This document shows, in pieces, positions 48,141 to 64,000 of a DNA stretch of 64,000 nucleotides. A program made the position numbers and the translations under genes. The notes beneath the pieces are model-generated. The model did not search any database. It saw only the letters and a list, made by a program, of their open reading frames with translations, and had not been told where the DNA came from. Numbering within the stretch: the first letter of the stretch is position 1; each line of letters opens with the position of its first letter. The DNA lies in the IMG/VR virus record IMGVR_UViG_3300009512_000010, positions 64,001-128,000 of that record; one strand, given 5' to 3'. The DNA is from a virus.

Positions 48141-48141
48141 A

Positions 48142-48894
48142 TTAACCTACAAAGAATTCTACAGGGAGTTCATGCTCTAGTCTCATATCCTCTTCGAGTT
48201 TCAATACTTCTGCGTTTGCGGCCTCTAGTATAGCCAAGCCATTCATCGTCACACCACCAGGCAATTGCATACCTTCAAACTTACTAAGGTTTTGCCCCCA
48301 TTGTTGCTTGACCAATGCAGTAAAGTATGCCTTAACAAACCTGTCGTTATACACTGATGTGTTTGCTACAGGATCTACAAGTTGAGTGCCTTCTACAATA
48401 ATGTATTGGCCTTCTTTAATATCTTGTGTTTCAAACTCGCCATGAATGTATAGCTTACTTTCGTATTGAGAGTAATTAACCTGTGGCATTCCGTTTAGTG
48501 TTTGGTCAATCATAGCAATGTGCTGTTGCATCATTGTATAATATGCCATGTCTCCCATGAACTTACCCATGACTGCAAGATCGTTCAACCTAAGCTGATA
48601 GCCCAAAGAGAACATTCCGCTAGAAGAAGCCCCACCATTGATTGGAAGGACTCTTTTCACAAATAGATAGTCGGATGGGATAGGGATATATTTGTTAGTG
48701 ACATCATCTGCCGTAATAAGATACTTTAGATAGACTGTCTTAGTCGCATCAGAATGGTACTCTTGAAAGTATTCAAGAGCTTCGTCCAATCTGTCTTCTA
48801 CTTGATCCTCATCAACATTAATTTCGAGAACAGGCTCACCCAATCTTCGCTTTGCATAGTCAATTAATGTCGATCTTGAATTCGGTTTTGCCAT
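48142..48894 (-). CDS. 13: Neck protein gp13
   Basis: RRLGEPVLEINVDEDQ, KQQWGQNLSKFEGMQLPGGVTMNG. Confidence 0.94.
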   Translation of the reverse strand: MAKPNSRSTLIDYAKRRLGEPVLEINVDEDQVEDRLDEALEYFQEYHSDATKTVYLKYLITADDVTNKYIPIPSDYLFVKRVLPINGGASSSGMFSLGYQLRLNDLAVMGKFMGDMAYYTMMQQHIAMIDQTLNGMPQVNYSQYESKLYIHGEFETQDIKEGQYIIVEGTQLVDPVANTSVYNDRFVKAYFTALVKQQWGQNLSKFEGMQLPGGVTMNGLAILEAANAEVLKLEEDMRLEHELPVEFFVG

Positions 48895-48933: not shown

Positions 48934-50862
48934 CTAATTTATATCCCCAGGGTAGCGTTGTGTCCACATTGTAAAGCTATATTTCGTTCCCGAAACAAGT
49001 TCTGTACACTCATGACCGTGTGTGACCATGCCCGGAAACAGAATCATCTTACCACAAGGCACATCATCGTTGTTAACACCCTGTCTTGGGTAGATCAAAG
49101 ACGCACCTTTATAGTCATCATTGAGCTTAACGGATCCTGTAACAAGAGAGGCATCATTGTGCAAAGGCAAACTCTTTTGAGTGTCCACCGAATATCGCAT
49201 AACGAATGCATCACGCATACCATACATTTCAATAGGGTGCCAAAGCTTCTCTACGATTGGTACGATATGTTCTTTCCAATGGGTTTCTAGCTCATTCCAC
49301 AATCCTAGTTCTTTGACACGGATCTCATATGCTGGAAACTTATCTTCTGGCATAGGTGCCCACTTGCCGTGGTTATCACCCATTTCAATCAAACGATCAC
49401 ACTGGCTTTGTGTCATGAAGTCCACAACCATCATGTCCTTTTCAAGCATGTCAACCTTACCGTGATGGGGGATGAACATCGGAGACTGTGGAGTTGTTCC
49501 TAAAGCGGTTTTAGGTTTAGGCAATGCCTTTGTGTATTTGGTGTGCACTTGGCTCCATAGGTTATCAAACTTTACTTTAGCCTCAAACCCACCGTTACCA
49601 TGATATAGACAAGGAACAGTATTCGTGATTGGGTTCCATAGCTCATTACCTACGTCTACTTCTGGCTCGTGCGTTTGGAAGATATATTGTTCATAGTCCA
49701 ACCCTACAGAGAATTTAGTAGTATCGTTTAGCCAGACACGTTGCATGTATAGCTGATCGTCATCATCATCGTTAAGTCGTTCTCCAAAGAAGTCTTTTAA
49801 TGCACCAACCCTACCAATGTATTGTCCACTGTTGAGGTATTTGTAATGAAAGAGGTTGGGTTCTGGATGTAGGCTTTGCATGCTCTCGTCAGGCCAACAG
49901 CTTGCTTCTGCCCCGAATAGGATCTCTACAGAAGCGTCCATATACCGTTTAACGATTTCTTGTAGATTATTTGTAAAGAATACGTCATATGCATCTGTGA
50001 ATAGAAGAATATCGTTTTCGGGCAAGGTGTCGAGATAGTCTCGCACCAAGTTAACTTTATGTCCACCACCAGGGCCTTGCATGTCTGTACCAGCCCAATC
50101 GACATTAGTGCCCAAGTTCTTAACATCAAATCCCATTAGTGCCGCACTGTCATTCAATGCTACACACTTAGATCTATCCGTACCAACCGTAACCGCATGA
50201 ACATTGAAGTTTTGGAACCAATCGTCATGGCTTTGTGGCTCAATGTCAGATCCAAGAGCTTCTCTACTAATCTGTGTCGCAATCTCTACTTTGAGTGCTT
50301 GTACGTTATGTGTCTTTACCTTCTGAGCCAAGACCTCATCTACAGGGATGATCTTTCTGTGGAAACCACTATTAATAAGATCATGCGCCATTTTAACAGT
50401 TAGCATATATGCATGACCATTGTATGGATAGCAAGGCTTAACTAGGTGTTGATTGCCACCTTCTGTGACACCAGTTTCGTTATTCTCGTTGTGACCCAAA
50501 TATAGTAGATCGATATTATGCTCATCCATCCACTCGTGGTATTCGTTCTCTTTCCACTTAAATCTGTCGATCTTAACATCATCTTCGAAGATGATTGTAG
50601 TCTCGTTTAGTTCAACTACTTTCTGCCACGCCTGATAGTGTGATAGGAAGCAACCAACCTCACCCTTTGTAATTCTACGGTTCTTGAATGGATCACGCCA
50701 TTTGTGATTAACACCAAATTCATTGTCTACCATACGTTGGTGATCAATGTCATGACCATCAATAGCAAATACGAATTGATAATCTTCCAACCAACCACAT
50801 TCACCCATAAAGGATCTTTTTCTGTCAGTTCTTCGATTTAGATTAATAACTAGCTTGTGCAT
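48934..50862 (-). CDS. Tri-domain protein: GT25 (COLGALT-like) + PLOD-type glycosyltransferase + 2OG-Fe(II) lysyl-hydroxylase-like
   Basis: GT25: INLNRRTDRK, KGEVGCFLSH, FEDD. PLOD-GT: GGGHKV, FTDAYDV, AEASCWPD, YLNSG, DDDDDQLY, HGNG. Hydroxylase: FVMRY...LHND...THGHE...GTKY. Confidence 0.85.
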   Translation of the reverse strand: MHKLVINLNRRTDRKRSFMGECGWLEDYQFVFAIDGHDIDHQRMVDNEFGVNHKWRDPFKNRRITKGEVGCFLSHYQAWQKVVELNETTIIFEDDVKIDRFKWKENEYHEWMDEHNIDLLYLGHNENNETGVTEGGNQHLVKPCYPYNGHAYMLTVKMAHDLINSGFHRKIIPVDEVLAQKVKTHNVQALKVEIATQISREALGSDIEPQSHDDWFQNFNVHAVTVGTDRSKCVALNDSAALMGFDVKNLGTNVDWAGTDMQGPGGGHKVNLVRDYLDTLPENDILLFTDAYDVFFTNNLQEIVKRYMDASVEILFGAEASCWPDESMQSLHPEPNLFHYKYLNSGQYIGRVGALKDFFGERLNDDDDDQLYMQRVWLNDTTKFSVGLDYEQYIFQTHEPEVDVGNELWNPITNTVPCLYHGNGGFEAKVKFDNLWSQVHTKYTKALPKPKTALGTTPQSPMFIPHHGKVDMLEKDMMVVDFMTQSQCDRLIEMGDNHGKWAPMPEDKFPAYEIRVKELGLWNELETHWKEHIVPIVEKLWHPIEMYGMRDAFVMRYSVDTQKSLPLHNDASLVTGSVKLNDDYKGASLIYPRQGVNNDDVPCGKMILFPGMVTHGHECTELVSGTKYSFTMWTQRYPGDIN

Positions 50863-50887: not shown

Positions 50888-51448
50888 TTAGTCTCTGTAG
50901 AGATACAAATCAACAGGGACGCAGATCCGTAGTTCGGAGTAGTAAGGGTTGACGTGGTGATAAGCGAAACTTGGGAAGATCAAGAAGTCTCCTGTCTCAG
51001 GTTGATGATGATGTCTGTTAAACATTGGATTGAAATATTCGTCATACCCCCGATTGGCATTAGATCTAGGATCGTGTAGCACCAAGTCGCCGCCCGAATT
51101 TTGATCTTCTGCTAGTATATAGAACACGCCAGATAAGTGTGCTCCCGAATGATTGTGAATAGTCATTGAATAGTCTTTACCGTGACCAGTGATCCAACCC
51201 TTTAGCTTGTAGTTGTCCCAATCCTCAATAGAGCAATCAATAGTACTCTTTAGGTAGTCATTAAAAGCACTCTTAACAGTACTATTAAAGGCACTCATAA
51301 CAGCACTCTTATCATCCAATATGTTATATCCACCCAAATCGCTAGGTGGTTCGTTTAGATTGTATGTGCTAAATATATGTTCCACTAAACCAGTGGTGTC
51401 GAACTTTCCTTGACCCATCTGTGTAGGCCATAGATTATGGATATCCAT
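50888..51448 (-). CDS. 2OG-Fe(II) oxygenase
   Basis: HNHSGAHLSGVFY, GGDLVLHDPR, LIFPSFAYHHV, R-I. Confidence 0.85.
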   Translation of the reverse strand: MDIHNLWPTQMGQGKFDTTGLVEHIFSTYNLNEPPSDLGGYNILDDKSAVMSAFNSTVKSAFNDYLKSTIDCSIEDWDNYKLKGWITGHGKDYSMTIHNHSGAHLSGVFYILAEDQNSGGDLVLHDPRSNANRGYDEYFNPMFNRHHHQPETGDFLIFPSFAYHHVNPYYSELRICVPVDLYLYRD

Positions 51449-51499: not shown

Positions 51500-51528
51500 T
51501 TGACTCTATGTTTCGGGTATGCTAGAAA
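51500..51528 (+). promoter_or_regulatory. Sigma70-type promoter heading the plus-strand rSAM operon
   Basis: TTGACT-17-TAGAAA with TG extended -10. Confidence 0.55.
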
Positions 51529-51540
51529 TAGGTATAACAA

Positions 51541-51843
51541 ATGAAAAGAGAGAATCACATGACTATGATGAACACAGTACTTGACCAAATCAATCGTATG
51601 GACGCTTCAGAAATCAACCGTGTAGTTGAAGCGATCAAATCTCGCCGCAACTCACTGTCTTATGCCACAAACGCTACCTTGCGTGTTGGCGATATTGTCT
51701 CTTGGATGCGCCGTGATGGAAGCACTGTAACAGGATCTGTTAAGAAAGTTAATCAGAAAACAGTTATAGTAAATGAACGTAATAACCCCAATGTTTGGAA
51801 AGTATCTTCAAGCATGCTTACTCCACTGTCTATAGGTGGATAA
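51541..51843 (+). CDS. Small hypothetical protein (SH3/KOW-like beta C-terminus)
   Basis: LRVGDIVSW...VTGSVKKVNQKTVIV...WKV; start probably 51559. Confidence 0.65.
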   Translation: MKRENHMTMMNTVLDQINRMDASEINRVVEAIKSRRNSLSYATNATLRVGDIVSWMRRDGSTVTGSVKKVNQKTVIVNERNNPNVWKVSSSMLTPLSIGG

Positions 51844-52307
51844 TGACATTTGACGAATTCTTCGACTTCTTGATGAGTGAAGAATGTTTTAATGACTGTT
51901 CGGTCTCCTTTATTAACAATAGAGGAGAACAACAGTACATAGAGCATGACGATTTATTTGCATATAGGGGCAAGGTGGTTGATCTTTGGTTTAGTGGAGA
52001 TGATACGATTAAGGTAGAGGGATATGAACGTATCCAACCTTATGATGGGACTATCCATATATTCTATGCTCCTACAAATGCTCCTTCATTTCCTGTACAT
52101 ACAGATCCTATAGATATCTATATCGAATGCCTTGATGGGCGTAAGATAATGGAAATTGACGACCAATACGTGATGATAGAAAAGGGAACGAAGATCTTTA
52201 TTCCCGCAGACACACCACACGTTGCGCTCAACTCAGAGAAAGCATTGACATTAAGCTATGGCATTAACGACACAAACACATTCGGTAATCTACGTAAAGA
52301 CTACTGA
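51843..52307 (+). CDS. JmjC/cupin-like Fe(II) oxygenase
   Basis: SFPVHTDP (HxD), LDGRK, FIPADTPHVA; TAATG-coupled start at 51843. Confidence 0.7.
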   Translation: MTFDEFFDFLMSEECFNDCSVSFINNRGEQQYIEHDDLFAYRGKVVDLWFSGDDTIKVEGYERIQPYDGTIHIFYAPTNAPSFPVHTDPIDIYIECLDGRKIMEIDDQYVMIEKGTKIFIPADTPHVALNSEKALTLSYGINDTNTFGNLRKDY

Positions 52308-53289
52308 AACTTGTAATCTTAATTGCAGTCACTGTTTTACTTCTGGTATGAATGGGCGTAAGATCTATTTTGATCACGTGAAGACCGCAAATTGGTGTAA
52401 CGAACTCGACACTGGCTCTAACCAGATCCATTTAGAGTACCATGGTGGTGAGCCTATGCTTGCGCCCATGGCACACCTACGAGAATTCCATGACATCACT
52501 AAAGCTCAATGGGGTGATCGTGCAACTCATGGTATCACAACAAATCTTGTGTTTAAGCTTACCGAAGAGAAACTTGCATTCTTTAGTGAAATCATTACAG
52601 GTGGTAACATCGGCACCTCATGGGATCCTAATATTCGTTTTACTAACGAACATCAAAGGAAGATGTGGGAAAATAATGTTAAGCAGTTGACAGGACTTGG
52701 GCATAGTGTCAAGTGCTTTATCTCTGTATCTAAGGATGTTATTAAACTACAACCGTTGGAGATTGCTGATTATATGGAGTCTCTTGGTGTTGCTGAGATC
52801 TCTTATGAACGACTTACCCATGATGGTAATGCCACAATCAATACGGACATCTTTCCTCATAACTCTGAACTAGATGCTTGGTGGATGCTGATGCATGAAC
52901 AAACTCAAGATCACCCTGTAGAAAACGGCTTTATGGGATCCATCTACGACAAGTTCAACAAAGGGCAGTTCCAGATCGGCACATTCTGTCGTGATTGCGA
53001 ACAAAAGATCCACACTATTAATGCAGACGGTACTGTCGCAGGCTGTCCTAACACCGCACCAACCATGCATTATGGTCATATAGATACACCAGCAAAGGAA
53101 GTAAGATTAAGTCCTAAGCGTATGGAGATCATATCTTGTGAACAGCATGAACGTGATGAACGGTGTTACAAATGTCCAGTCTTTATGTATTGCCATTCTG
53201 ACTGTCATCAGTTACAATGGATGGATGATGTGTGCCCTGCGCCTAAAACATTGATGATGAAGTTAGCGAAAGAGAAGAAATGGATTTAA
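52258..53289 (+). CDS. Radical SAM/SPASM protein
   Basis: CNLNCSHC, HGGEP; SPASM-like C...G-x4-CP...CYKC-x5-C-x3-C...C. Confidence 0.92.
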   Translation: MALTTQTHSVIYVKTTETCNLNCSHCFTSGMNGRKIYFDHVKTANWCNELDTGSNQIHLEYHGGEPMLAPMAHLREFHDITKAQWGDRATHGITTNLVFKLTEEKLAFFSEIITGGNIGTSWDPNIRFTNEHQRKMWENNVKQLTGLGHSVKCFISVSKDVIKLQPLEIADYMESLGVAEISYERLTHDGNATINTDIFPHNSELDAWWMLMHEQTQDHPVENGFMGSIYDKFNKGQFQIGTFCRDCEQKIHTINADGTVAGCPNTAPTMHYGHIDTPAKEVRLSPKRMEIISCEQHERDERCYKCPVFMYCHSDCHQLQWMDDVCPAPKTLMMKLAKEKKWI

Positions 53290-54317
53290 TCGTAAAGCCA
53301 ACCGAAGCGTGTAACTTCAAGTGTACATTTTGCTCGTCAACAGATATCGATCCCAATGAGGTTGGTCTGTTAGACTTGAGCTATATCTATAGGTTCTTAG
53401 AAAGGTTTCCAGAGACTAACACAATTATTGTTAATGGTGGTGACCCTCTTATGGTCAAGCCACAGTATTATCAAGATCTAATTGACCACCTTAATGAGCA
53501 TGATTACCCAGCAAGCATTAGCTTTACGTCCAACCTTTGGCCTTTCCTAATGAAACCTAAGAAGTGGTTACCCATCTTTCAGAACGAACGATTTGGTTGT
53601 GCCACATCATTTCAGTATGGTGGCGGTAGACTAAAAGGCGATTATTCAGAGTTCACAGAGGCAGACTTTTGGATGGTGTCTAATGCCATGTTGAAGCATA
53701 CAGGTGAACGTCCAGATTTTATCGCAGTTATTACAGAAGAGAATGAGCATCTCGCCATTAAGAATGTAGAACTAGCAAAAGAGATGGGCGTCGAGTGTAA
53801 GTTGAACTATGCTATGGCTTCTGGTGTACAGGGATCTACGTATCAATTAAGCAAGATCTACGAAACATATCTTGAGATTTATGACCGTGGTCTAGCCGAT
53901 CATGAGTTCAACACTAAGCAAATGATGAAACGTCTTGGGGGATCTTCTACATCATGCCCACAGAATAGAGCGTGTGATGAAGGTATCCGTGCATTTAACC
54001 CAGGAGGTGATTACTACTCTTGTGGTTCATTTGCAGATGATATGGATTATCCTATCGACTTCGAAACTGAGATGGCAGGAAAGTTGCAAACACCACTGCA
54101 ACACGACCCCAACATTCAGACAATGAAGATGGCTTGTTACACATGCCCTATGTTTGAAATCTGCAATGGTTGTAAGAAAACTGTGCGTGATATGAAACGT
54201 GAAGGTACTGTTGAAGGTCATTGTAGGCAGATGAAAGCATTGGCACCTCGTATCCTTGCTACCAATAATATGAGTCCTGATGGAGTGACGCCCTATGTCG
54301 ATGAATCTATCAATTAA
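53280..54317 (+). CDS. Radical SAM/SPASM protein
   Basis: KPTEACNFKCTFC, NGGDP; C...GDYYSC...CYTC-x5-CNGC...C. Confidence 0.92.
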   Translation: MDLIVKPTEACNFKCTFCSSTDIDPNEVGLLDLSYIYRFLERFPETNTIIVNGGDPLMVKPQYYQDLIDHLNEHDYPASISFTSNLWPFLMKPKKWLPIFQNERFGCATSFQYGGGRLKGDYSEFTEADFWMVSNAMLKHTGERPDFIAVITEENEHLAIKNVELAKEMGVECKLNYAMASGVQGSTYQLSKIYETYLEIYDRGLADHEFNTKQMMKRLGGSSTSCPQNRACDEGIRAFNPGGDYYSCGSFADDMDYPIDFETEMAGKLQTPLQHDPNIQTMKMACYTCPMFEICNGCKKTVRDMKREGTVEGHCRQMKALAPRILATNNMSPDGVTPYVDESIN

Positions 54318-55224
54318 CCCAACTTACTATTGTAACTTCTCTTGCGACTTTTGTTACTTGACAAAGCAACAGTTAAATGATAGACACAAGATAAACCCAA
54401 TGTGGTTACAACATTCTATGGGTCAAATAACAGATCCTATAACTCATGTTGATTTATATGGCGGTGAGATTGGATTACTAACACCAGAGTATTATTATTC
54501 GATCAAAGAGGTGATTAGGAGATACTATGGTGGTAGTATCCACATCAACACAAATCTGTCAGCATTTCCAGACTTCTTCCGTGATGATGATGTTACCCTA
54601 TCGGTATCTTATGACTTCCACGCAAGAGAGAAAGAACAGTTTGTTCTAAATAACATGATGAATGCTAATAAGGATCTTGCTGTCCTTATCCTTGCATCGC
54701 CTAAAGTATTGAAGATGGATGTGGAGTTTATGATCTTCACTCTTAACATGGTTTCTAATGTCAAGTCGGTAGAGATCAAGCCTTACTCTATCAACCAAGC
54801 CAATGCATTTGATGTTACTCATAAAGACTTTGAGGACTTCGTTATTAGGTTTGATGAGGCTAAGACTAAGAAGAACTTTGACTTCCAAAACATACACAAC
54901 ATTTATAGAAGTATAGATAAAGAGTACAATGCCTTTTCCAATGACCACGTCTATATCACACCATCTGGTAAGTTTGGCGTATTGGAGTTTGATAAGCATG
55001 ATAAAGAGTACTTCAAGGAGTATAGCACATATTATGAATATAAACAATGGGCAGATAACGAAGCTGTTGATAATCTTAGCGACATTTGTCGTAGCTGTAC
55101 CTATTTCGGTACATGTCTTACCGAGCACTATCGGTACGTATTGGATTTAGACAACAGTTGCAATGGATATAAAGGATTACTAGATTACTATGGAAAATTG
55201 GAAAGCGAGACAGAAGGCGTATAA
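54295..55224 (+). CDS. Radical SAM protein with reduced SPASM-like tail
   Basis: CNFSCDFC, YGGEI, CRSC-x5-C...C. Confidence 0.88.
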   Translation: MSMNLSINPTYYCNFSCDFCYLTKQQLNDRHKINPMWLQHSMGQITDPITHVDLYGGEIGLLTPEYYYSIKEVIRRYYGGSIHINTNLSAFPDFFRDDDVTLSVSYDFHAREKEQFVLNNMMNANKDLAVLILASPKVLKMDVEFMIFTLNMVSNVKSVEIKPYSINQANAFDVTHKDFEDFVIRFDEAKTKKNFDFQNIHNIYRSIDKEYNAFSNDHVYITPSGKFGVLEFDKHDKEYFKEYSTYYEYKQWADNEAVDNLSDICRSCTYFGTCLTEHYRYVLDLDNSCNGYKGLLDYYGKLESETEGV

Positions 55225-55588
55225 TCATATGACAACAAACCACCGTGACGATTTGACGGATGTTGATGTATTGAATAGGCCAGAATTTATTGTAGAAGAT
55301 GCTTTGATGCACTTCGATAAGAGAGTGGATCAGTGGATCTACCCAGCGAAGTCGTTCTTCGTTGCAATCTGCTATGCCAATTGGATAGCCGAAGACTTTG
55401 GTGAGCAGTTCTATGATGTACTAAACTATAACGAATTACTACCAGACGATCCACACTTCCTACCATATGAGAGAAGTAAAGAGATCTATGATGAGATCCT
55501 TTCTAAAGTTAATTTTGATAATACTAATGGTATGGTTCCAGATGTCTATGAGTATTACCAAGAGGAATTCATGATTGGACAACTTTGA
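55190..55588 (+). CDS. Hypothetical protein in the rSAM operon
   Basis: 132 aa, overlaps both flanking rSAM genes. Confidence 0.7.
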   Translation: MENWKARQKAYNHMTTNHRDDLTDVDVLNRPEFIVEDALMHFDKRVDQWIYPAKSFFVAICYANWIAEDFGEQFYDVLNYNELLPDDPHFLPYERSKEIYDEILSKVNFDNTNGMVPDVYEYYQEEFMIGQL

Positions 55589-56657
55589 CTTCACCAAACA
55601 GCTACTGGAATCTAAACGTCCAGACATAGCCGAGATTGAGATGACACTCTTTGAGAACTGTCACCTCAACTGTTCTTTTTGTCACCACGACAAGAAGTCT
55701 ACAGTAGGCTTGTCTCGTGAAGAGATCTTCTCCAAGATCCCTCTAGTAGAAGAGCATGTTATTAAGATGAAGAACCGTGCAGACGTTATTCAGATCAATA
55801 TGCTTGGTGGAGAATTGTTTCAAGACCGAATATCTGAGTGGGCTTATGAGGTCTACTACGACTTCTTAGTTGAGATTAAGAAGATCTATGATGAACATAA
55901 GCAGAACATTAAAGTAGTTTGGGTAACATCCTTTCAGTTTAGTAAACGTGAGAGAGTTCAAAAACTACTTGATGATTTGAATGCAATAGACATTCCATCC
56001 TATATTATCTGTTCTTATGACTTTGATGGTAGACCTGTCAAAGGACCTTATGGCAAGAACATAGAATACTTTGCTGATTATATCACATCTATTAATATGG
56101 TTGCAACCACTATTTCTATTAAAAAGTTTATGGCAGATGAGGACGAGTACTTTCACTATCTGTATAATAAGTTTGATAACTTCTACTTTGATGATTACAT
56201 TCCTGATCGTGGTTATGACTATATGATCCCATCAGATAGTGAGTATCTTGAGTTCCTAAAGTTTGTGTATCATAACTATCCAGACATCAATCCTATCAAG
56301 GATCTGATCTATAACGAAACAAATCATATGCATTGCTTGGCTCTTAACAAGGTTACAATCTTTCCTGATAACTCTACATCAAACTGTAGATGGGATAGAT
56401 ATGACCAACGTGACTTCAACACGAAGTATGAGCCTAAAGATAATGCTGGTATGATGCAAGCTTATATGGATGAGAATGGTTGCTTGTCATGTAAGTGGTA
56501 CAACAAGTGTGGCTTTAGATGTTATACACAATGGGATTGGAAGAACCGTGAACGAGATCTGCCCGACTGTATAATGCGCATGTGGTTTAACTACATGGAC
56601 AAGACAGGACAAAACCAAATCACAGGATTTGATTACGTGGGAACAAACACTCCGTAA
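55575..56657 (+). CDS. Radical SAM/SPASM-like protein
   Basis: CHLNCSFC, LGGEL, C...C...CLSC-x5-C-x3-C...C. Confidence 0.88.
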   Translation: MDNFDFTKQLLESKRPDIAEIEMTLFENCHLNCSFCHHDKKSTVGLSREEIFSKIPLVEEHVIKMKNRADVIQINMLGGELFQDRISEWAYEVYYDFLVEIKKIYDEHKQNIKVVWVTSFQFSKRERVQKLLDDLNAIDIPSYIICSYDFDGRPVKGPYGKNIEYFADYITSINMVATTISIKKFMADEDEYFHYLYNKFDNFYFDDYIPDRGYDYMIPSDSEYLEFLKFVYHNYPDINPIKDLIYNETNHMHCLALNKVTIFPDNSTSNCRWDRYDQRDFNTKYEPKDNAGMMQAYMDENGCLSCKWYNKCGFRCYTQWDWKNRERDLPDCIMRMWFNYMDKTGQNQITGFDYVGTNTP

Positions 56658-57642
56658 CACCGTGATGCTCCATGTAGGATTGCACACCCTTATCGATACA
56701 CGTCATCATATGAGCACATCCAGAACAACTATCTGTATTGGCAGTGTATGCTAATTGCGACCCAAAGTTGTCGCTTTTGGCACTTATCCAAGATTCAATA
56801 TCATTCTCATCATGTACTTTAAACTTGTCTGTGCCTATCTTAACAATATCGTAGACGAATGGTGTCCAGAAGAAGTTGCCATTACAGTATGTGTAGTTAA
56901 GTTCTAAGGATCCGCCCTGTGCTTGATCGATGATAGTAGAGGGAAAAGCGTCTTCTGCCCAATCATCTAGCTTCTTCCACTTGTCTATTAGATGTTTCTG
57001 TACCTTAAACTTATCCGCTCTAAGAAACGATGGGTTAAGAGTTAAGATCGTGTCAAACTCATCGTCAGCAATATCTGAGAACTCTATGACTTTGGCATTG
57101 GTCTTATCGTCATTACCCATATTCATTACAAGATAGTAATTCAGATCGTCATCGAATAGGTTTAGCTTATCGATCATATCTTTGTATCCATGGGGGAACT
57201 TTTTAGGATCGATTGCTATGTTAGCATCGTACATGAACCCATCTATTTTGGGTATGCTGTTAAGTAATTCGATAACCTCCGTTGAGATGTTGGTTAGAGT
57301 CGTCACGAATTGTATAGTAGAAACCTTACTCAAACACTCTCGAAATGTTTCATCTCGCAATAACTCTATGACGTTGTTGTTGCCGAATAGATCAGTTGGT
57401 CCGATATTGATAGTGGAAACCCTATACCCATTATTATTGAACAAGTCAATAGCATTGTTTAATCTTTCGTAGGATCCCATGTTAGTGCCTAGTTTGTTTA
57501 CAAAACAACCCACACACTTGAACTCACATCCTGACAGAACTTCAGCATTGAATATAACCTTGATCTCGTGTCCTTCGTTAAAGGATAGATCAAAGTCTGC
57601 ATCAGCCTGAGCTTCTTTCTTGTTGTTAGTAACTATTCCCAT
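56620..57642 (-). CDS. Divergent radical SAM-like protein (GPTD subfamily)
   Basis: GCEFKCVGCF, IGPTDLF, CSGC-x5-C...C; start refined to 57642. Confidence 0.8.
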   Translation of the reverse strand: MGIVTNNKKEAQADADFDLSFNEGHEIKVIFNAEVLSGCEFKCVGCFVNKLGTNMGSYERLNNAIDLFNNNGYRVSTINIGPTDLFGNNNVIELLRDETFRECLSKVSTIQFVTTLTNISTEVIELLNSIPKIDGFMYDANIAIDPKKFPHGYKDMIDKLNLFDDDLNYYLVMNMGNDDKTNAKVIEFSDIADDEFDTILTLNPSFLRADKFKVQKHLIDKWKKLDDWAEDAFPSTIIDQAQGGSLELNYTYCNGNFFWTPFVYDIVKIGTDKFKVHDENDIESWISAKSDNFGSQLAYTANTDSCSGCAHMMTCIDKGVQSYMEHHGVTECLFPRNQIL

Positions 57643-58759
57643 GGTAATCCTCGTTATCGAATAGAGCAATAACATCTTTGTTTAATATACATTCAGATCT
57701 TCCCTCAAACATCGTATCCATAACTTTGGGTATCAATCTGTTGGAGCACACGTTGAGGTACTTACACGTTCCGCATTCTTTATTAGAACTATTTATTATC
57801 TGATCTGTAACGACTTGGTGTTTGTAATTTAAGATACCTTCTACTGTATGTGTAGTGATCTCGAAGTCATCTTTATAGATCTGAGCATTCTCATAGATGA
57901 ATGGTGACGCATATAGTTTGCCGTTGTGGATGTTCACCACCGCATAGTGAAATGCTTTGTGAGATAGATCCCCCTGTAAGAAGTGAAACTTGTTCTTAAA
58001 ACGATTGACATCACTAGACAAGTTTGTCAACATATCATTCCAAGCGAATAGTTTGTCTCCATGCTTGGTAGAATGGTTAAAGGATCTGACAACAGAGGGT
58101 AAGATTTCAATGACCGTGTCGTAGGTTTCACGTATGTAGTCGATAGCTTCGTATAGCCTGTCTTCGATACCCTCTACAATGTTAGTTGCCATAGAGATCT
58201 CAAAGTCCAACGAACTCTCTTTGAAGTTCATCACTCTGTTTCTCAATGCTTTCCTGTATCTTTTATCATCCAATACACGCACAAGATCTAAAGCAATCTG
58301 CACATCCCAAGACTCAACAACCTTACCAAGAGGAGACTTTTCGATAGCCTTGATCTTACCTAGAATATCATCTTCCGATAGAGACCCCATGATAGAACAG
58401 TTATGTTGAATGTTTCTATTACCTTCTGGTATCATAGAGATGGCATCAGATAATCTGGCATTGTGTATGATTTCTTCTAGGTTTTCTGCACCATAGAAGT
58501 CTGTAGGTCCGATAACAATATCGTCTAACACGACATCAGTTCTACCATGTAATTCGTATGCCAGATTGTGAAACATCTTAATTGACTTGGGATTCCAATT
58601 ACCTCTACGTTTAACAAAACAACCAGGACACATGTAAGAGCACCCTTCAAGTAATTCTAAAGTAACTTGGATCTTGTACTGCGTCATTGAGGATACTGAA
58701 GTAAACTCTTCTCCCACACCACCGTGCTTAACAATGTCTTTCCAACTATTATTTAACAT
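57626..58759 (-). CDS. Divergent radical SAM-like protein (GPTD subfamily)
   Basis: GCSYMCPGCF, IGPTDFY, CGTC-x5-C...C. Confidence 0.8.
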   Translation of the reverse strand: MLNNSWKDIVKHGGVGEEFTSVSSMTQYKIQVTLELLEGCSYMCPGCFVKRRGNWNPKSIKMFHNLAYELHGRTDVVLDDIVIGPTDFYGAENLEEIIHNARLSDAISMIPEGNRNIQHNCSIMGSLSEDDILGKIKAIEKSPLGKVVESWDVQIALDLVRVLDDKRYRKALRNRVMNFKESSLDFEISMATNIVEGIEDRLYEAIDYIRETYDTVIEILPSVVRSFNHSTKHGDKLFAWNDMLTNLSSDVNRFKNKFHFLQGDLSHKAFHYAVVNIHNGKLYASPFIYENAQIYKDDFEITTHTVEGILNYKHQVVTDQIINSSNKECGTCKYLNVCSNRLIPKVMDTMFEGRSECILNKDVIALFDNEDYHGNSY

Positions 58760-59912
58760 AGGAGATGTCCTTAATTCGTTCTAGTTCTGGATCGTCATCT
58801 GTTGTAACAAGAAACCTCTTACGATAACCCTTCTTATCGTTTTCAACAGAATAGTCATCCCACTGATACATCTTCTGAGCAGGTGCATTATAGTTATGTA
58901 TATGTTCCATCATATTCTGCTTAGGAGCAATACAACGATCAACTCCAAGGTAATCTCTGAGTAGAATAATCTTTCTATTGTAACAAGACATCATCAAGGG
59001 ACAAGTTTCGCACTCTGTGCCCTTGACCCTTTCCAACTGAGATTGTACAATAGGAAGCACATCGTCAAAGTTATCCACTTTAAACATCTCATGGTACAAT
59101 GCCATGTTTTCGTACATAAACGGCGAAATGAACCATTCGCCCTTTTTATAGTTTAGTACGGTATAGTTCATGCCACCGTGTGAGTGGTCTACCATTATGT
59201 TATTTAATTCTGTTTCTTTATAAGCACTTAGCTCGTTAAAGAAGTCATTAAACTTGTCTAATGTATCTAATATTAGTTTAGGCTTGTGAGAACGTGAAAC
59301 AGACGGTACAAAGTCTAATATCGTTTTAAAGCGTTCTATTGCACTTTTATGCAGTTTAACGTAGTCTAGGCCATAATCACGTATATTGACCACAAACGTA
59401 TATGTCACTTCATGTTCTAGGTTTTTATCAATGTACTCCAACATCTTGTGAATATGCTGTACATAATCCTCATCAAAGAACTTGTTAACATTCGTTGCGA
59501 TACCAATTTCAATCTCAGTATCTATGTTAATATTATTTGTTATGAAAGCAACCCATCGTGGAAGATCCCCATCAATCAGTGTGCTGACAAATGCAAGAAT
59601 GGGTGAGTTCTCATTAATGATATCGACTAGAGATGGCATGACCTCATAGAAGTTTTCGGACGCAAGAAAGTCTGTAGGTCCGATAAGGATCTCGTCAACC
59701 AAGATGCCTCTATCAGTTATGTCTCGTATGAAGTCTTTGGCTTTATGGATCTGATGTTCATCACTAGCATTACCTCTGCGATGCACAAAACATCCCGGAC
59801 ATTTGTGATGACAACCATCTAGGATATCAAGCTGAAGTTTAACCGCCGAGACTGGTTTAGTTTGCGTCTCTGTGGTTAGCTCGTAATATAAGTTGTTCTT
59901 AATTAACGGCAT
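58749..59912 (-). CDS. Divergent radical SAM-like protein (GPTD subfamily)
   Basis: GCHHKCPGCF, IGPTDFL, CETC-x5-C...C. Confidence 0.8.
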   Translation of the reverse strand: MPLIKNNLYYELTTETQTKPVSAVKLQLDILDGCHHKCPGCFVHRRGNASDEHQIHKAKDFIRDITDRGILVDEILIGPTDFLASENFYEVMPSLVDIINENSPILAFVSTLIDGDLPRWVAFITNNINIDTEIEIGIATNVNKFFDEDYVQHIHKMLEYIDKNLEHEVTYTFVVNIRDYGLDYVKLHKSAIERFKTILDFVPSVSRSHKPKLILDTLDKFNDFFNELSAYKETELNNIMVDHSHGGMNYTVLNYKKGEWFISPFMYENMALYHEMFKVDNFDDVLPIVQSQLERVKGTECETCPLMMSCYNRKIILLRDYLGVDRCIAPKQNMMEHIHNYNAPAQKMYQWDDYSVENDKKGYRKRFLVTTDDDPELERIKDISYVK

Positions 59913-60924
59913 GCATATATTCTTTCAAGGCAACACAAGTGTTCAACTTCCTTGACTTCATATACACGTGTATGTTTCTTTCTGCGCAACTCATTAGGTA
60001 TTCGCATGTGTTACAATCGTCTACTGTCTTTGCATACTCTAGGTTAGTGCCCAACCATTCCTGATCCATTGTAGTTTGAAACTCAGGTGTTCTCTGAATG
60101 ATTGCGTCATATAAAAATGGATTGATGTATAATTTGCCGTTGTAGAAACTATAGTTCTGACAGCCATATCCATTAAACCTAGCATCAAAGAATGTGTATA
60201 AGTTCCTCCACTCATCATTTATCTTCTGCTTACGCAGATCTGCCCTAAACATATCAAGAAACTTATTGACCTTACCACGTGCATTCTTGTCTGTCAAGAA
60301 AGAAGGTGCGATGACTATGGGTGCGTTAAAGTCTTCCTTGACTTTGGCACACAGATCATTATATCCTATTCTGTCAAACAAATCAGGAGTGTAGTTAACT
60401 CTGAACTGAACAGATCCAATGGTAAACATCTTTATGTTTTCAAGGAAGTTGGGGTCAAGGTCATCATCAAGATACGCCTCAACATCTAACACAATCTTAA
60501 AGTCGATATCTGGAATTCTATTGATGTTACGATAGATCTGCCAAATCATATCAAGTTTAGGCTTGACAACCTTTGGGTCTTGTAATAGTGTAGATGTAAA
60601 TCCGACACCACTTATAGCATACAGGTCTGTCATCGATGGGTGTGTCATCACCTCATCAAAGTTCTGAGCATCAAAGATGTCAGTTGGACCTATAGTAATT
60701 TCATCTGGATAGAACTGTCCCTTACACAACTCATCGTATAGAGTAGCCATGTGATCAGGTGATGTCAAGTTCTTTCTTGGGATAAAGCATCCGGGACACA
60801 TCTGATCACAACCATGGAGAATATCCAAGTTGATCTCTGTGCGTAGGAAATCGGTATTAACAGGGCTTATGCCATGAACGTAACGATAGTACCCTGCTTC
60901 TGTTGCATTAAGCTTTGTTATCAT
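59899..60924 (-). CDS. Divergent radical SAM-like protein (GPTD subfamily)
   Basis: GCDQMCPGCF, IGPTDIF, CNTC-x5-C...C. Confidence 0.8.
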   Translation of the reverse strand: MITKLNATEAGYYRYVHGISPVNTDFLRTEINLDILHGCDQMCPGCFIPRKNLTSPDHMATLYDELCKGQFYPDEITIGPTDIFDAQNFDEVMTHPSMTDLYAISGVGFTSTLLQDPKVVKPKLDMIWQIYRNINRIPDIDFKIVLDVEAYLDDDLDPNFLENIKMFTIGSVQFRVNYTPDLFDRIGYNDLCAKVKEDFNAPIVIAPSFLTDKNARGKVNKFLDMFRADLRKQKINDEWRNLYTFFDARFNGYGCQNYSFYNGKLYINPFLYDAIIQRTPEFQTTMDQEWLGTNLEYAKTVDDCNTCEYLMSCAERNIHVYMKSRKLNTCVALKEYMHAVN

Positions 60925-61666
60925 CTAGAATCAACATGAAATCGTCGGGAAAGAATGATACGATCTGATCCGTAATCTTAGTCTCACACATAATATGATA
61001 GAGATCTTTGCCGAAATATTTGGGGGAGTCGTTAAACACTTGTTTATTATATTCAATCGACAATCCGTTTTTACTCAAGATTAGTAGAAGCGCATCATAG
61101 CCTGTAGTGAGAAGTCTGGCAATATTAGGTCCACACGTAGCTGGTTTATCAACTACCTTGATGTCTTCAACCAGTTCTTTTAGATTTTTTTCGGTTAGCT
61201 TCATATCATCGTCAAGCCCATCGTATAGTTTAGTTAGGGCAAATGGTACTGAAGATGCAACTGTGGCGATTAAATCGTCAACCAATTGTTCATTATCTTC
61301 AATAAACTTATCGATAAGTTTTGGTGGGAACAGATATAATAGTTGGCTCTCTTGTTCACCAATGTCATGTCTATATTTGAACTTAATAATAAGAACAATG
61401 ATCCTAGCCAATAGAGGACAGTCAACCATAAAGTCTGATTTGATATACGCTTTAATCAAGTCTTCGTCAATAGAAGAGAACGTTGTCTTAAAGTTAGTGT
61501 TAGCCAAATAGATGATAATGTGCTGTGCAGACAACTTCTCTTTACTCTTAGCATAATCAACCCAAAGAACGTATTCTTCAAGTTCACTCTTGTCTTTATA
61601 GATCTGTACTAAGTGTTGAGGAGATAGTGGTAACTCATAACACGTACTCTCGTCTGGAGTTGTCAT
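60908..61666 (-). CDS. Hypothetical protein in the rSAM operon
   Basis: Helical-looking ORF; start refined to MTTPDE at 61666. Confidence 0.7.
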   Translation of the reverse strand: MTTPDESTCYELPLSPQHLVQIYKDKSELEEYVLWVDYAKSKEKLSAQHIIIYLANTNFKTTFSSIDEDLIKAYIKSDFMVDCPLLARIIVLIIKFKYRHDIGEQESQLLYLFPPKLIDKFIEDNEQLVDDLIATVASSVPFALTKLYDGLDDDMKLTEKNLKELVEDIKVVDKPATCGPNIARLLTTGYDALLLILSKNGLSIEYNKQVFNDSPKYFGKDLYHIMCETKITDQIVSFFPDDFMLILDDNKA

Positions 61667-61679
61667 AATATAGTATTCC

Positions 61680-62783
61680 TTACAATGGGTACTTGTGGAT
61701 AAGATATGGAATGCGGTTTTGTCTCTTAGAGAAGAACTGCACATCTGTATTTATCAGCTTCAAATCTGCGGTTAGATTGTCCATGTCAAAGTCATTCTGC
61801 AATACCTTGCGCACGATAGGAAACACATTCTTAAACTCTGTGTATAGATCCATATATTCCCAACCATCTGCGTCACTATCTGCCTTAGATTGGTGAGCCG
61901 CAAGGAATGCAGTATCGTCTTTAACCAAGTTCCACAACTCTTCTAGTTGATAGAAAGCGGCAGTATAGTTTCCAGCATTAGCCTTAGTAACATAACAGGA
62001 TCTGATCCACGTAGTCTTGTTGGTTGCATATTCTGCATTACGTGATACATTGGCATTCATCCAATCGATGACTGCTAAAATATAAGCCAAGTAGTGGCGT
62101 CTTGATGTAAAGTGTTCCATCACATCTTGTGCCATTGTGGATTGGTGTACTGTAAACTTCTCTTTGATTAGTAGTTGTACTGAATTATTTGTATAGTAAT
62201 CGTTTAAGAAGAACAGTAGGTCATAACTGAAGTTCTTGCCATTCTGATAGATCACCGTATAAGGAGTTACTGCCCCACCACCTGAGTCTGTGGAGAATAG
62301 TGTGTCTACATGATTTGATACATCTAAAATAGTTTCATTGTCAAGCACCATAGTGAGCATAACATCCATAGAGAAGATCTTCTCAAGGAATGCTCCAACC
62401 ATTGCATTAACGTTAGTAGACGAGTCATAGAAACCAGATGCCGTAATAAGACCTGATGTGTAACGTGCAAAAACTGTGATCATATCTTCAACAGTAGAAA
62501 ATAGAATGATAACCTTATCACTGTTTTGAATATAGTCGATATCATCTACATCAGCGTAATCCATATAACTAATCAAATCGTTAGCATTTGCTCTAATCGT
62601 ATTAGCAATAGACTCATACTGAGCCGCCAATAATTGATCACCATTAGATCGGTGTACAATCACGATGTTACGTGGGGTTGCTGTGTGATAATACGAGTTT
62701 AACTCGAAACACACTGTTCCCAAGTTGTTAATAGTTGAGATATACTTTGAGTTGTTTAAGTAATAGAGATTTTGACCGATCAT
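61680..62783 (-). CDS. Hypothetical protein in the rSAM operon
   Basis: 367-aa ORF with no recognisable motif. Confidence 0.7.
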   Translation of the reverse strand: MIGQNLYYLNNSKYISTINNLGTVCFELNSYYHTATPRNIVIVHRSNGDQLLAAQYESIANTIRANANDLISYMDYADVDDIDYIQNSDKVIILFSTVEDMITVFARYTSGLITASGFYDSSTNVNAMVGAFLEKIFSMDVMLTMVLDNETILDVSNHVDTLFSTDSGGGAVTPYTVIYQNGKNFSYDLLFFLNDYYTNNSVQLLIKEKFTVHQSTMAQDVMEHFTSRRHYLAYILAVIDWMNANVSRNAEYATNKTTWIRSCYVTKANAGNYTAAFYQLEELWNLVKDDTAFLAAHQSKADSDADGWEYMDLYTEFKNVFPIVRKVLQNDFDMDNLTADLKLINTDVQFFSKRQNRIPYLIHKYPL

Positions 62784-62785
62784 GG

Positions 62786-63964
62786 TTACGCTCCGTCTTT
62801 CATTTTGTATTTAGTTGCATCATCATTCCATGTAAAGTCGAATGGATTATAGTGTTTCAATGTTTCTTTAGGTAATACACACCCATCAATATTGAGACTA
62901 TCTTGAGCCTCGAATACCAATCTACTTGCACAAGCCATAGCAAACTGACAGTCTGCACAATCTTTTACCTTACTAGACTTATTTATACCCTTTGTAATCA
63001 GTTCGTTCTTACGTTGTAAGATCTCTTCGAATGTAAGTCCTGTTACGTCTAGGTTCTTATTAGTTATAAAGAACGCTTGTTCGTGAAGCATTACATTCAA
63101 GTGTGTCGTAGGTCCGTTCTCTCCTGGAACAATAGTAATGCCCACAAAGTTGATTGAGTTACAGTAGAGATTAGCCATAGACATAACAGTCTCACTAGCA
63201 TTGTTCTCATCAATAACCGACTCAAGGAACTTATTCCACGCAAACAAGTTGTTACGTTGAATGATTTGATTAGGTGCCCTAGCGAATGCAGGGTTCATTT
63301 CCATAATAGTGCCGAAGTCGTTTACAGAACGATCAATCAGCCTATTGTATTTCTCTTTGTCAATCTGCTTACCGACAACGTTAGAAGCCTGTAATGTCCA
63401 AGACCAATCCATCATCTTTGGAGTTTCGTTCTTAAAGAACTCTATTTTCTCCATAACTCTGTTATAGTAATCGTCATCATCCAACATCTCGTTAATACGA
63501 CCAATCGGCATAATGAATTCGATAACCATGTCACGTCTATACGCATCTAGGTCATCCAGAATAGCAAAGATCTCTCTGACCTTTTCCATTGAAGCATTGT
63601 CGAACTTAGCTGGAGACGCAATACGTGCATTAGTGTGTTCTCTCATTATAGCTTGAACAGTTGGGTTTGTCAATACTTCTTTTGTATTCTTAGCAGAAAA
63701 TAGATCTGTAGGTCCGATAACAAACTCTCTTAGGTTACCACCCACACGTAATACACCATCAGCAAGTTCCTTAGCACGATCAATGATCTGTTGATTGCTT
63801 ACAGGATCAATTGCTTTGTCAACGAAACATCCAAGACAGCCCTGTTCACATCCAGCCAGAACTTCCATCTGAATAAGAACATCGAACTTTGTTGCATCAG
63901 ATGGTGCCAGACTTTCGGGTCCTGAGTATCTCATCTGCTTACAATATGATTGTTGCATTGTCAT
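62786..63964 (-). CDS. Divergent radical SAM-like protein (GPTD subfamily)
   Basis: GCEQGCLGCF, IGPTDLF, CADC-x5-C...C. Confidence 0.8.
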   Translation of the reverse strand: MTMQQSYCKQMRYSGPESLAPSDATKFDVLIQMEVLAGCEQGCLGCFVDKAIDPVSNQQIIDRAKELADGVLRVGGNLREFVIGPTDLFSAKNTKEVLTNPTVQAIMREHTNARIASPAKFDNASMEKVREIFAILDDLDAYRRDMVIEFIMPIGRINEMLDDDDYYNRVMEKIEFFKNETPKMMDWSWTLQASNVVGKQIDKEKYNRLIDRSVNDFGTIMEMNPAFARAPNQIIQRNNLFAWNKFLESVIDENNASETVMSMANLYCNSINFVGITIVPGENGPTTHLNVMLHEQAFFITNKNLDVTGLTFEEILQRKNELITKGINKSSKVKDCADCQFAMACASRLVFEAQDSLNIDGCVLPKETLKHYNPFDFTWNDDATKYKMKDGA

Positions 63965-63965
63965 G

Positions 63966-64000
63966 TTATCGTCTTCCTCTTGATGTATGACAGCTGGTGT
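63966..64000 (-). CDS. C-terminal end of an upstream gene, ...TSCHTSRGRR* (candidate modification substrate)
   Basis: Minus strand AC ACC AGC TGT CAT ACA TCA AGA GGA AGA CGA TAA; stop lies 1 nt before the rSAM ATG. Only 35 nt visible. Confidence 0.6.
   Translation of the reverse strand, partial: TSCHTSRGRR

Follow-up and report, generated by a model that had tools for sequence, protein, structure and literature searches.

The locus described here raises the question of why a phage should carry nine radical S-adenosylmethionine (rSAM) genes side by side, and on which molecule their products act. It lies at the end of a 64,000-nucleotide stretch of viral DNA (positions 64,001 to 128,000 of IMG/VR record IMGVR_UViG_3300009512_000010), called the window below; coordinates are those of the window, numbers above 64000 refer to the genome sequence beyond it, and (+) and (-) give the strand. 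The window is part of a 159,934-bp contig that encodes homologs of gp23, gp20, gp18, gp17, gp15, gp14 and gp13. Phage C48C1, OM43 phage Melnitz and Pelagibacter phage HTVC008M have major head proteins with 63-68% identity to the one encoded here, and the source genome is, judged from its sequence, a T4-like marine myovirus. The answer proposed here, to which we assign a probability of about 0.55, is that the locus serves the rSAM maturation of a retained virion protein, probably one associated with the fibres.

The candidate substrate is encoded at the very end of the window, where the initial annotation had seen the locus run off the sequence. Past position 64000 the genome continues with two genes, CHxS-1 (63966-64352 (-), its 3' end, 63966-64000, inside the window) and CHxS-2 (64352-64738 (-)), and then with fibre genes (64739-74424). 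Each of the two encodes a protein of 128 amino acid residues (aa) ending in LCHSSCHTSCHTSRGRR, and the C-terminus common to these paralogs reads ...CHSSCHTSCHTSRGRR. This tail consists of Cys-His-x-Ser three times, followed by Arg-Gly-Arg-Arg at the extreme C-terminus. The two proteins are 56% identical overall, while their 17-residue tails are identical in amino acids and differ in 9 of 17 codons. A homology search gave 141 homologs, and the motif CHxxCHxxCHxxRxRR stands at the end of 116 of the 120 that were listed. A profile search of 1.84 billion representatives gave 127 clusters at 50% identity, 112 of which end in the tail motif; most of the other 15 are fragments, and the profile match is always located at the C-terminus. 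The proteins range in length from about 106 to 541 aa. Since the tail is invariant while the rest of the protein and the codons diverge, it appears to be under strict selection at the protein level. From these sequence features CHxS-1 and CHxS-2 are the probable substrates of the enzymes.

The CHxS proteins belong to no Pfam family and give no NCBIfam match at E up to 0.05, the HxsA model TIGR03979 included. A tblastn search of phages with CHxS-1 found nothing at a threshold as loose as E 1, probably due to low-complexity masking of the tail. Longer fused CHxS forms were not found in a weak search that depends on shared words. In the predicted structure of CHxS-1 (predicted local distance difference test, pLDDT, 80) a helix (residues 6-21) is followed by a long β-hairpin (25-56) and a second helix (81-102), and comparison of this model with the PDB (best E 0.4) and with the ESM Atlas (template modelling score, TM, up to 0.37) gave no fold relative. 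Each H-x-S unit, three per tail, has an aromatic-x-x pattern that resembles a triceptide target by motif only.

The DNA encoding the tail and its stop codon, (CHxS)3-RGRR-stop, was searched as a degenerate pattern, which by our estimate would be expected by chance about 1e-16 times per site. It is present in at least 119 IMG/VR contigs, and with this conservation an origin of the tail as a sequencing or frame artefact was rejected. In the genomes of 185,579 prokaryote species the same pattern occurs in 18 contigs, all from metagenome-assembled genomes (MAGs), with 8 of the 18 binned as Bdellovibrionota. Two of these Bdellovibrionota-binned contigs are 299 kb and 382 kb long. Such copies may be mis-binned phage contigs, prophages or cellular copies. 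At least one ortholog of the plus-strand enzymes rSAM-A to rSAM-D, or of the minus-strand family E, is found in the flanks of most viral tail loci and of all 18 MAG contigs; the viral loci having no such ortholog in the fetched flank are short. In all four cultured lineages with an rSAM-A ortholog a CHxS-tail gene comes directly after it, and the proteins end in ...CHSSCHTSCHGSRGRR (RSL2), ...CHSSCHASCHNSRSRR (Atu_ph07), ...CHTSCHASCHSSRSRR (Phosso) and ...CHTSCHTSCHSARGRR (pPa_SNUABM_DT01). The motif and the enzymes co-occur both ways. By this sequence distribution the system is widespread and essentially phage-restricted, unrelated phages included. The jumbo phages RP12 and RP31 carry a different rSAM cluster, and a megablast search of GenBank phages with the locus gave no match.

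Physical evidence on the protein is available from Atu_ph07, whose purified particles were analyzed by gel-slice electrospray tandem mass spectrometry (Supplementary Table S5, PMC6102473). The masses computed from the locus match those in the table exactly, so that the gp numbers of the table can be taken as the RefSeq numbers. The CHxS protein gp170 (31.89 kDa) is represented by 8 unique peptides at 35% coverage in bands 1-9; it is most abundant in band 1, at the top of the gel, whereas the peak of a dozen further proteins with masses of 29-32 kDa is in bands 7-8 (PMC6102473). The virion table also contains gp177 and gp176 (66.07 kDa), the latter a member of the fibre-like family F4, while gp164-169 and gp171-172, which comprise the rSAM enzymes, the partner protein F3 and a cupin, are not among the virion proteins (PMC6102473). 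According to this table the CHxS homolog is associated with the virion, the enzymes are not, and gp170 migrates far above its own mass. Labels such as F3 and F4, and the numbers of loci given with them, are derived from clustering of the open reading frames (ORFs) of all related loci retrieved.

The initial annotation had described nine rSAM genes divided between the plus strand (four) and the minus strand (five), and this is fully borne out. All nine proteins (52258-63964) contain CxxxCxxC within the first 60 residues and a C-terminal Cx2Cx5C...C, and the three cluster Cys residues are conserved at 85-90% or more in the members of every rSAM family from A to E. With the PF04055 model, which has a cut-off of 29.5 bits, rSAM-B scores 31.0 and four others 18.9-22, while four family-E proteins have no match. 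Adjacent genes of the locus overlap by 10-65 nt, and the plus- and minus-strand operons are convergent with an overlap of 38 nt. The locus begins directly after the neck genes (gp13, gp14 and gp15 neck/tail-completion homologs, 45959-48894), so the description of two gene-overlapping operons beside these genes was accurate, as was that of a JmjC-like gene, which is the cupin. The ORFs other than rSAM genes and the cupin number four and not three: 51541-51843 (+), 55190-55588 (+), 60908-61744 (-) and 61680-62783 (-), the last two having no Cys motifs. Five further rSAM-like genes with CxxxCxxC are found elsewhere in the 160-kb genome, bringing the total to 14. One precedes the window (genome positions 25194-26096 (+)) and four lie beyond its end (76631-77575 (-); 82638-83318, 83664-84497 and 84490-85167 (+)). 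Their best matches, to a tungsten-cofactor maturase, MoaA, viperin, TrsS and NirJ, are all below threshold, and they are not orthologs of A to E.

The four plus-strand enzymes are one-to-one orthologs of proteins of RSL2 and Atu_ph07 (30-59% identity) and match phrog_1802, 'radical SAM domain-containing protein', in PHROGs (E 6e-19 to 6e-54). Alignments with the related loci show GGE or GGD conserved in all four families, as had been noticed initially. The SPASM-like Cys tails ascribed to all four are complete in three of them. The seven-Cys SPASM motif (TIGR04085/PF13186; Cx9-15Gx4C...Cx2Cx5Cx3C...C) is complete in rSAM-A, and rSAM-B with eight and rSAM-D with seven Cys residues follow the same pattern; it is not found in rSAM-C or in family E, which have four conserved C-terminal Cys residues only. 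These four would be enough for one auxiliary cluster.

In rSAM-A (52258-53289 (+); C19/C23/C26, HGGE62-65) the full SPASM set C247..G258x4C263, C303x2C306x5C312x3C316 and C326 is conserved in at least 90% of 81 members. Its score with the SPASM model TIGR04085 is 29.9 bits (cut-off 27), and its profile, compared with solved structures, matches anSME (4k37, 1.3e-9) and also ChlB, CteB and YydG. A conserved antisense ORF family, F13 (25 members; 52530-53117 (-) in the window), lies within the rSAM-A orthologs; most likely it is no gene but a side effect of coding-sequence conservation on the opposite strand. The most conserved component of the system is rSAM-B (53280-54317 (+); C11/C15/C18 and eight conserved C-terminal Cys), with 51-63% identity across phages; the orthologs are RSL2 ORF075 (56%) and Atu_ph07 gp165 (59%). 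Despite the eight Cys residues in SPASM pattern it scores 21.1 bits with the SPASM model, below the cut-off of 27. The auxiliary motif of rSAM-C (54295-55224 (+); C13/C17/C20, GGE56-58) is the single conserved four-Cys set C265x2C268x5C274...C289, and its orthologs are RSL2 ORF077 and Atu_ph07 gp164. rSAM-D (55575-56657 (+); C29/C33/C36, GGE78-80) has seven conserved C-terminal Cys residues including C303x2C306x5C312x3C316; it occurs in 71 loci, with RSL2 ORF072 and Atu_ph07 gp168 as orthologs.

None of the nine proteins reaches the cut-off of any named maturase or cofactor family in NCBIfam. The best matches, to DarE, DynA, PapB, AmcB and anSME, are at 30-48 bits against cut-offs of 300-650. 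The anSME model TIGR03942 gives 30.6 and 37.5 bits (cut-off 349), and only the last repeat of the tail (C-H-T-S-R) is loosely similar to the anSME target C/S-x-P/A-x-R. The triceptide maturase models AmcB, YhhB, XyeB and GrrM/OscB give 16-36 bits (cut-offs 310-450), and the CXXX-repeat peptide maturase model TIGR04115 gives 20.2 bits (cut-off 350), over the N-terminal 60 residues only. Sequence and model comparisons together would place the enzymes in the neighborhood of peptide- and protein-modifying SPASM enzymes, in no named family.

The minus-strand proteins form family E. Four genes, E1 to E4, are in tandem (56620-57675, 57626-58759, 58749-59912 and 59899-60924, all (-)), and their products have CxxxCxGCF, GPTD in place of GGE, and Cx2Cx5C...C. 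The fifth, E5 (62786-63964 (-); C39/C43/C46, C336x2C339x5C345...C362), is located directly downstream of the two CHxS genes, and its orthologs in related contigs are 72-94% identical and in the same position. The five are mutual paralogs with 20-27% identity (E 1e-16 to 1e-28). In PHROGs the family has a weak match to phrog_31457 (no known function), and its profile has no meaningful match among PDB sequences. The AlphaFold model of E3 (58749-59912; pLDDT 77) contains a partial TIM-barrel fold like that of solved rSAM enzymes: the Foldseek probability is 1.0 for anSME, ChlB, EpeE, CteB, SuiB, SkfB and viperin, and the TM values are 0.43-0.5 for the first six and 0.43-0.57 for the set with viperin. 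The profiles of family E and rSAM-A align end to end in hhalign (E 2.8e-4, probability 41%, 290 columns). A role of the minus-strand genes as degenerate non-enzymes was considered and rejected, as the cluster-binding Cys residues are all conserved over 116 members. The five paralogs are, as far as sequence comparison goes, a lineage-specific expansion, and the conserved core would consist of the four rSAMs, the cupin, F3 and the oxygenases. Inside the E5 coding sequence there are a perfect sigma-70 consensus (TTGACA-17-TATAAT, 12/12; 63673-63645 (-)) and, upstream of the F11 gene, a T4-type late-promoter box (TATAAATA; 62980-62987 (-)). Both sites may drive, from inside the operon, the expression of the enzyme genes that lie downstream.

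F3 (60908-61744 (-), with a probable start at 61666 giving 252 aa) accompanies the CHxS gene more constantly than any other protein. Its family counts 116 members and occurs in 115 loci; in most of these its gene is either next to the CHxS gene on the downstream side or one gene further on, as for RSL2 ORF070 and Atu_ph07 gp169. No Pfam family (26 members searched) or NCBIfam family was found for it, and its Atlas feature matches (0.81 or less) are at chance level. The predicted complex of F3 and CHxS-1 scored 0.77 (three runs: 0.00, 0.82 and 0.77), the best of three controls 0.01; 58 of 80 solved complexes and 2 of 110 mismatched pairs attain the mark used for this score. Contact agreement in these runs was at least 0% and the partner pLDDT at least 41. 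The confident part of the predicted interface involves the N-terminal helix and hairpin of CHxS-1 (residues 4-35 and 52-57), including L21, R22 and F24, which are invariant in the CHxS proteins, and leaves the tail free. This prediction supports but does not show the binding of F3 to the CHxS protein. Since the interface is N-terminal and the tail is free, F3 might serve to recognize the CHxS protein or act as its chaperone, presenting the tail to the enzymes.

The other core component is the cupin/JmjC-like protein (51795-52307 (+)), whose gene immediately precedes rSAM-A in 69 loci. Its HxD...H triad, H102-x-D104...H142, is conserved in at least 85% of 66 members. The JmjC_2 score is 24.3 bits (cut-off 22), with no individually significant stretch, and Cupin_2 and MPI_cupin are below cut-off; by sequence the protein is a probable Fe(II) oxygenase. 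An acidic protein of 132 aa (55190-55588 (+)), present in 19 loci and usually next to rSAM-C, has no Pfam or NCBIfam match. F11 (61680-62783 (-), 367 aa, 29 loci) is specific to the marine T4-like arrangement of genes. No family match was found for it beyond LicT at 21 bits, and by BLASTP it is not detectable as a paralog of E5. Its hhalign comparison with F8/F22, at the equivalent place in the Type I arrangement described below, is weak (probability 17%, E 0.0015), so that a relation of F11 to F8 would be remote at best; F8 itself is RSL2 ORF069 (hhalign probability 99.8%). No hhalign link of F11, F8 or F22 to families E or D was found.

Two arrangements of these genes can be distinguished. 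In Type I, which is found in many lineages including jumbo phages, the order is F12 (large), F4 (fibre-like), cupin, rSAM-A, CHxS, F3, F8, rSAM-D, F14 (sometimes with F15 after it), rSAM-B, 2-oxoglutarate (2OG) oxygenase, rSAM-C, the 132-aa protein and a second 2OG oxygenase. The CHxS gene thus follows immediately after the rSAM-A ortholog. RSL2 has a dihydrofolate reductase gene, ORF073, between rSAM-D and rSAM-B; it is lineage-specific and absent from the window and from Atu_ph07. In Type II, found in the marine T4-like relatives including the window, the order is F4 fibre, two CHxS genes, E, F11, F3 and three to four further E genes. The Type II set converges on the Type I enzyme operon, which in the window has no CHxS gene of its own. 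One contig of 151 kb, IMGVR_UViG_3300025138_000014, contains a Type II pair of 128-aa CHxS genes as well as a Type I CHxS gene of 195 aa with its own rSAM-A; one phage can thus hold three substrates. In most loci the CHxS gene is flanked by rSAM-A and F3, and in every lineage CHxS genes come after fibre-like genes, the RSL2 and pPa_SNUABM_DT01 loci being without an F4 member. The F4 family (80 loci) corresponds in this phage to the C-terminal domain of a 357-aa collagen-like protein. Upstream of its CHxS genes, which meet the fibre genes at gaps of 0 to 3 nt, collagen-repeat proteins of 357 and 566 aa are encoded; genes for a 982-aa and a 772-aa protein follow, the gaps in this row being 0-17 nt, and a 514-aa gene comes next in the fibre series after a gap of 67 nt. 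Because of this nearly gapless arrangement the fibre operon seems to end with the CHxS and family-E genes as its continuation, and the plus operon has a promoter-like site of its own. This layout hints, by weak inference from sequence, that the core enzymes could be made before the substrate.

A scheme of maturation can be proposed on this basis. The substrate would be the small CHxS protein, here of 128 aa, ending in (CHxS)3-RGRR and encoded by two tandem copies translationally coupled to the collagen-like fibre genes. It would be held through its conserved N-terminal helix and hairpin by F3, acting as a leader-recognition or chaperone element. The 16-residue tail would then be modified by rSAM-A, B and D, with two putative auxiliary Fe-S clusters each, and by rSAM-C with one, joined by the Fe(II) cupin and the 2OG oxygenases. 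The product would not be released but would stay on the protein and be built into the virion, probably on or beside the F4 fibre protein encoded upstream. In the marine T4-like lineage the substrate gene would have been doubled, and the divergent family E, with one auxiliary cluster, would have grown to five copies. The observations underlying this scheme are the gene content, the invariance of the motif, its co-occurrence with the enzymes, the SPASM-type fold class and the presence of the Atu_ph07 homolog in virions. The initial annotation had already favored maturation of a peptide or virion protein with a retained substrate, which the SPASM relatives, the CHxS proteins and gp170 now support. 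It had also pictured a multi-step pathway of unusual size for a phage. The locus is indeed large, but it is not unique to this phage, its five paralogs are lineage-specific, and nine steps are not established.

Several points weigh against maturation of a retained virion protein. The tail as substrate, the binding of F3, the retention of the product in the adsorption apparatus and the chemistry are all steps that we infer. As no curated family cut-off is reached, the substrate class depends on weak similarity and context, and the family-E proteins, with GPTD in place of the SAM-binding motif GGE, are putative enzymes. On the side of the models, one of the three F3-CHxS-1 runs scored 0.00 and the CHxS tail is predicted at a low pLDDT of 53-61. 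The loading buffer used for Atu_ph07 is described without a reducing agent (PMC6102473), and the position of gp170 in the top band could come from disulfides formed by the three tail Cys residues and not from rSAM chemistry. The same preparation was purified with polyethylene glycol, and 112 'additional' virion proteins were reported (PMC6102473), some of which may be contaminants.

Other functions of the locus have been considered. One is that the tail is the core of a RiPP (a peptide made on ribosomes and modified after translation), in which F3 would bind an N-terminal leader of about 110 residues while the 16-residue core is modified, cut and freed, for example as a metallophore or as a toxin against the host or competitors. 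The layout is the classic one, with a C-terminal core, a variable N-terminal region containing a conserved recognition patch and several SPASM maturases, and the weak best matches DarE, DynA, PapB and AmcB are RiPP maturases. However, gp170 is found in virions at 35% coverage, CHxS proteins reach 541 aa and are always accompanied by fibre genes, and no peptidase or transporter family occurs in the locus proteins or the recurrent neighbor families, as had been noted initially for proteases and transporters. Host enzymes may be the source of a leader protease or exporter. Such a released product seems to us unlikely. Slightly less probable still is a role at DNA entry resembling that of the bacterial HXS system, in which two rSAMs mature a basic effector with five HxS repeats that blocks phage DNA entry (PMC13128918). 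The phage tail, with three HxS units and RGRR, would be a cousin of HxsA, with enzymes related to HxsB and HxsC; delivered into the periplasm from its virion location at entry, the matured basic tail would serve in superinfection exclusion or as a decoy or counter to bacterial HXS. However, the CHxS proteins do not match the HxsA model, and the scores for HxsB (TIGR03978, 27.4 bits against 370) and HxsC (TIGR03977, 25.2 bits against 268) are no better than those for unrelated rSAM families. Searches with Pfam and NCBIfam revealed neither an HxsD-like protein nor a domain for a signal peptide or for peptidoglycan binding, and neither a Cys in every repeat nor a strictly C-terminal place is a feature of HxsA as described (PMC13128918).

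The tail could also be left unmodified, as a metal or Fe-S site or an assembly chaperone element, with the rSAMs acting on the collagen-like fibres, a glycan or a cofactor. Its Cys and His residues at i, i+4 and i+8 would line one face of a helix such as the modelled 115-124, and the PLOD-like glycosyltransferase/hydroxylase and 2OG oxygenases nearby plausibly act on collagen-like fibres. This is doubtful to about the same degree as the HXS-like role, as the enzymes co-occur with the CHxS gene itself, even in the RSL2 and pPa_SNUABM_DT01 loci that have no F4 fibre member, and the consistent flanking of that gene by rSAM-A and F3 would be left unexplained. Phage rSAM enzymes are reportedly involved in thymidine hypermodification, and a role of the locus in hypermodifying DNA or nucleotides or in making a cofactor, in the manner of QueE, MoaA or viperin, would agree with the RSL2 dihydrofolate reductase gene inside the cluster and with weak viperin, MoaA and NrdG matches. 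In the comparison with characterized rSAM families the NrdG, MoaA, QueE and viperin models score 16-28 bits against cut-offs of 126-349, over the N-terminal cluster-binding stretch only, and the initial statement that none of the proteins looks like NrdG, QueE or MoaA is thereby upheld. The recurrent families contain no hypermodification kinase, glycosylase or transferase, and the reductase gene is specific to one lineage, so that a function of this kind is very improbable.

If the CHxS tail is matured and retained on the virion, the chemistry would most likely be, by precedent only, the formation of intrachain crosslinks, as cyclophanes between His(i) and Cβ of Ser(i+2) and/or as Cys thioethers, or the oxidation of Cys or Ser to formylglycine. 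Thioethers of the sacti or ranthi type are one option, suggested by the Cys that invariably precedes each His, and four different conserved rSAMs together with oxygenases imply several distinct steps. A tail crosslinked or otherwise modified might form a tip that is rigid, binds metal or crosslinks covalently. It is a tentative proposal, which we hold at somewhat less than even odds, that unrelated phages (T4-like marine, phiKZ-like and Rak2-like jumbo phages) share a dedicated rSAM pathway by which the (CHxS)3-RGRR tail of a virion protein associated with the fibres is given crosslinks or reactive groups, producing an adsorption structure resistant to sodium dodecyl sulfate and possibly covalent or metal-bearing. 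The rSAM/SPASM maturases have so far been found to act on secreted peptides, sulfatases and, recently, one bacterial defence effector. If the proposal is true, this would be the first rSAM post-translational chemistry built into a virus particle, with a new class of viral post-translational modification and a new rSAM substrate motif; it might be an evolutionary counterpart of the bacterial HXS defence effector. It would also give a function to the long-noted, unexplained 'radical SAM cassettes' of abundant marine myophages and several cultured jumbo phages. As cultured carriers exist (Atu_ph07, RSL2/RSF1, pPa_SNUABM_DT01 and Phosso), the hypothesis is directly testable.

The opposite flank of the locus contains further modification genes. 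A fusion of GT25 and PLOD-type glycosyltransferase domains (48934-50862 (-)) accompanies the two collagen-repeat fibre proteins (64739-67516 (-)); the sequence of the fusion and the collagen repeats suggests a collagen-style hydroxylation and glycosylation of phage fibres. The next gene (50888-51448 (-)) encodes a 2OG-Fe(II) oxygenase (PF13759, E 8e-15). It belongs to F9, a recurrent accessory family of which 38 members were counted over 28 related loci, and the copy in one of these shares 84% identity with it. At the head of the plus operon is a basic ORF of 100 aa (51541-51843 (+)) with a sub-threshold DUF2187 match; no homolog was found in the related loci and its membership is doubtful. 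The promoter-like site, TTGACT-N17-TAGAAA, is located in a 92-nt intergenic gap upstream of this ORF and the plus operon.

It remains to compare the locus with known systems. With anSME, CteB, PapB, DarE/DynA, ChlB, EpeE/YydG and SuiB it shares CxxxCxxC and GGE, the SPASM motif in A, B and D, the fold of the E3 model and a neighboring protein with a short conserved repeat-bearing target segment. It differs in its scores of 20-48 bits against family cut-offs of 300-650, in a candidate substrate that is a virion-associated protein of 106-541 aa and not a short secreted peptide or sulfatase, and in being phage-encoded, in a tail-fibre module, with four to nine rSAMs per locus. The three-residue cyclophane enzymes are also SPASM proteins, joining Phe to Cβ of Ser in F-x-S (MscB) or C2 of His to Cβ of the residue i+2 (HaaB, YhhB) (PMC11002830). 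H-x-S would suit this linkage of an aromatic residue i to Cβ of i+2, and AmcB, YhhB, XyeB and GrrM are weakly matched; unlike the triceptide systems, the phage tail has an invariant Cys before each His, and all scores are far below cut-off. In HXS (HxsA-D) a protein with HxS repeats and flanking basic residues is likewise combined with two rSAMs and a small partner, the product stays a protein, and a change of +8 Da was reported on SHRSS (PMC13128918). HXS is bacterial and its product periplasmic, whereas the phage repeat is C-H-x-S, exactly three times at the extreme C-terminus, the accessory genes are the cupin, F3 and 2OG oxygenases, and the HxsA/B/C models are unmatched.

Our literature search, tail-motif strings included, found no description of the system, the CHxS tail or its function. 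The genes themselves have been seen before. Pelagimyophages have been described with 'radical SAM gene cassettes' in their host-recognition cluster (PMC7029224), and the annotations of the jumbo phages RSL2, RSF1, FLC6 and S13 include rSAM, cupin and 2OG genes (PMC8066314, PMC11898562). These three reports give annotations only, with no mention of a CHxS-tail protein, F3 or a function. The cassettes and the jumbo-phage genes are the same genes or orthologs, at the same place in the genome, as those of the present locus. In comparison with all these systems, the locus would thus represent a known kind of chemistry, rSAM/SPASM maturation, applied to what appear to be a new kind of substrate, a virion protein, a new target motif and new accessory proteins.

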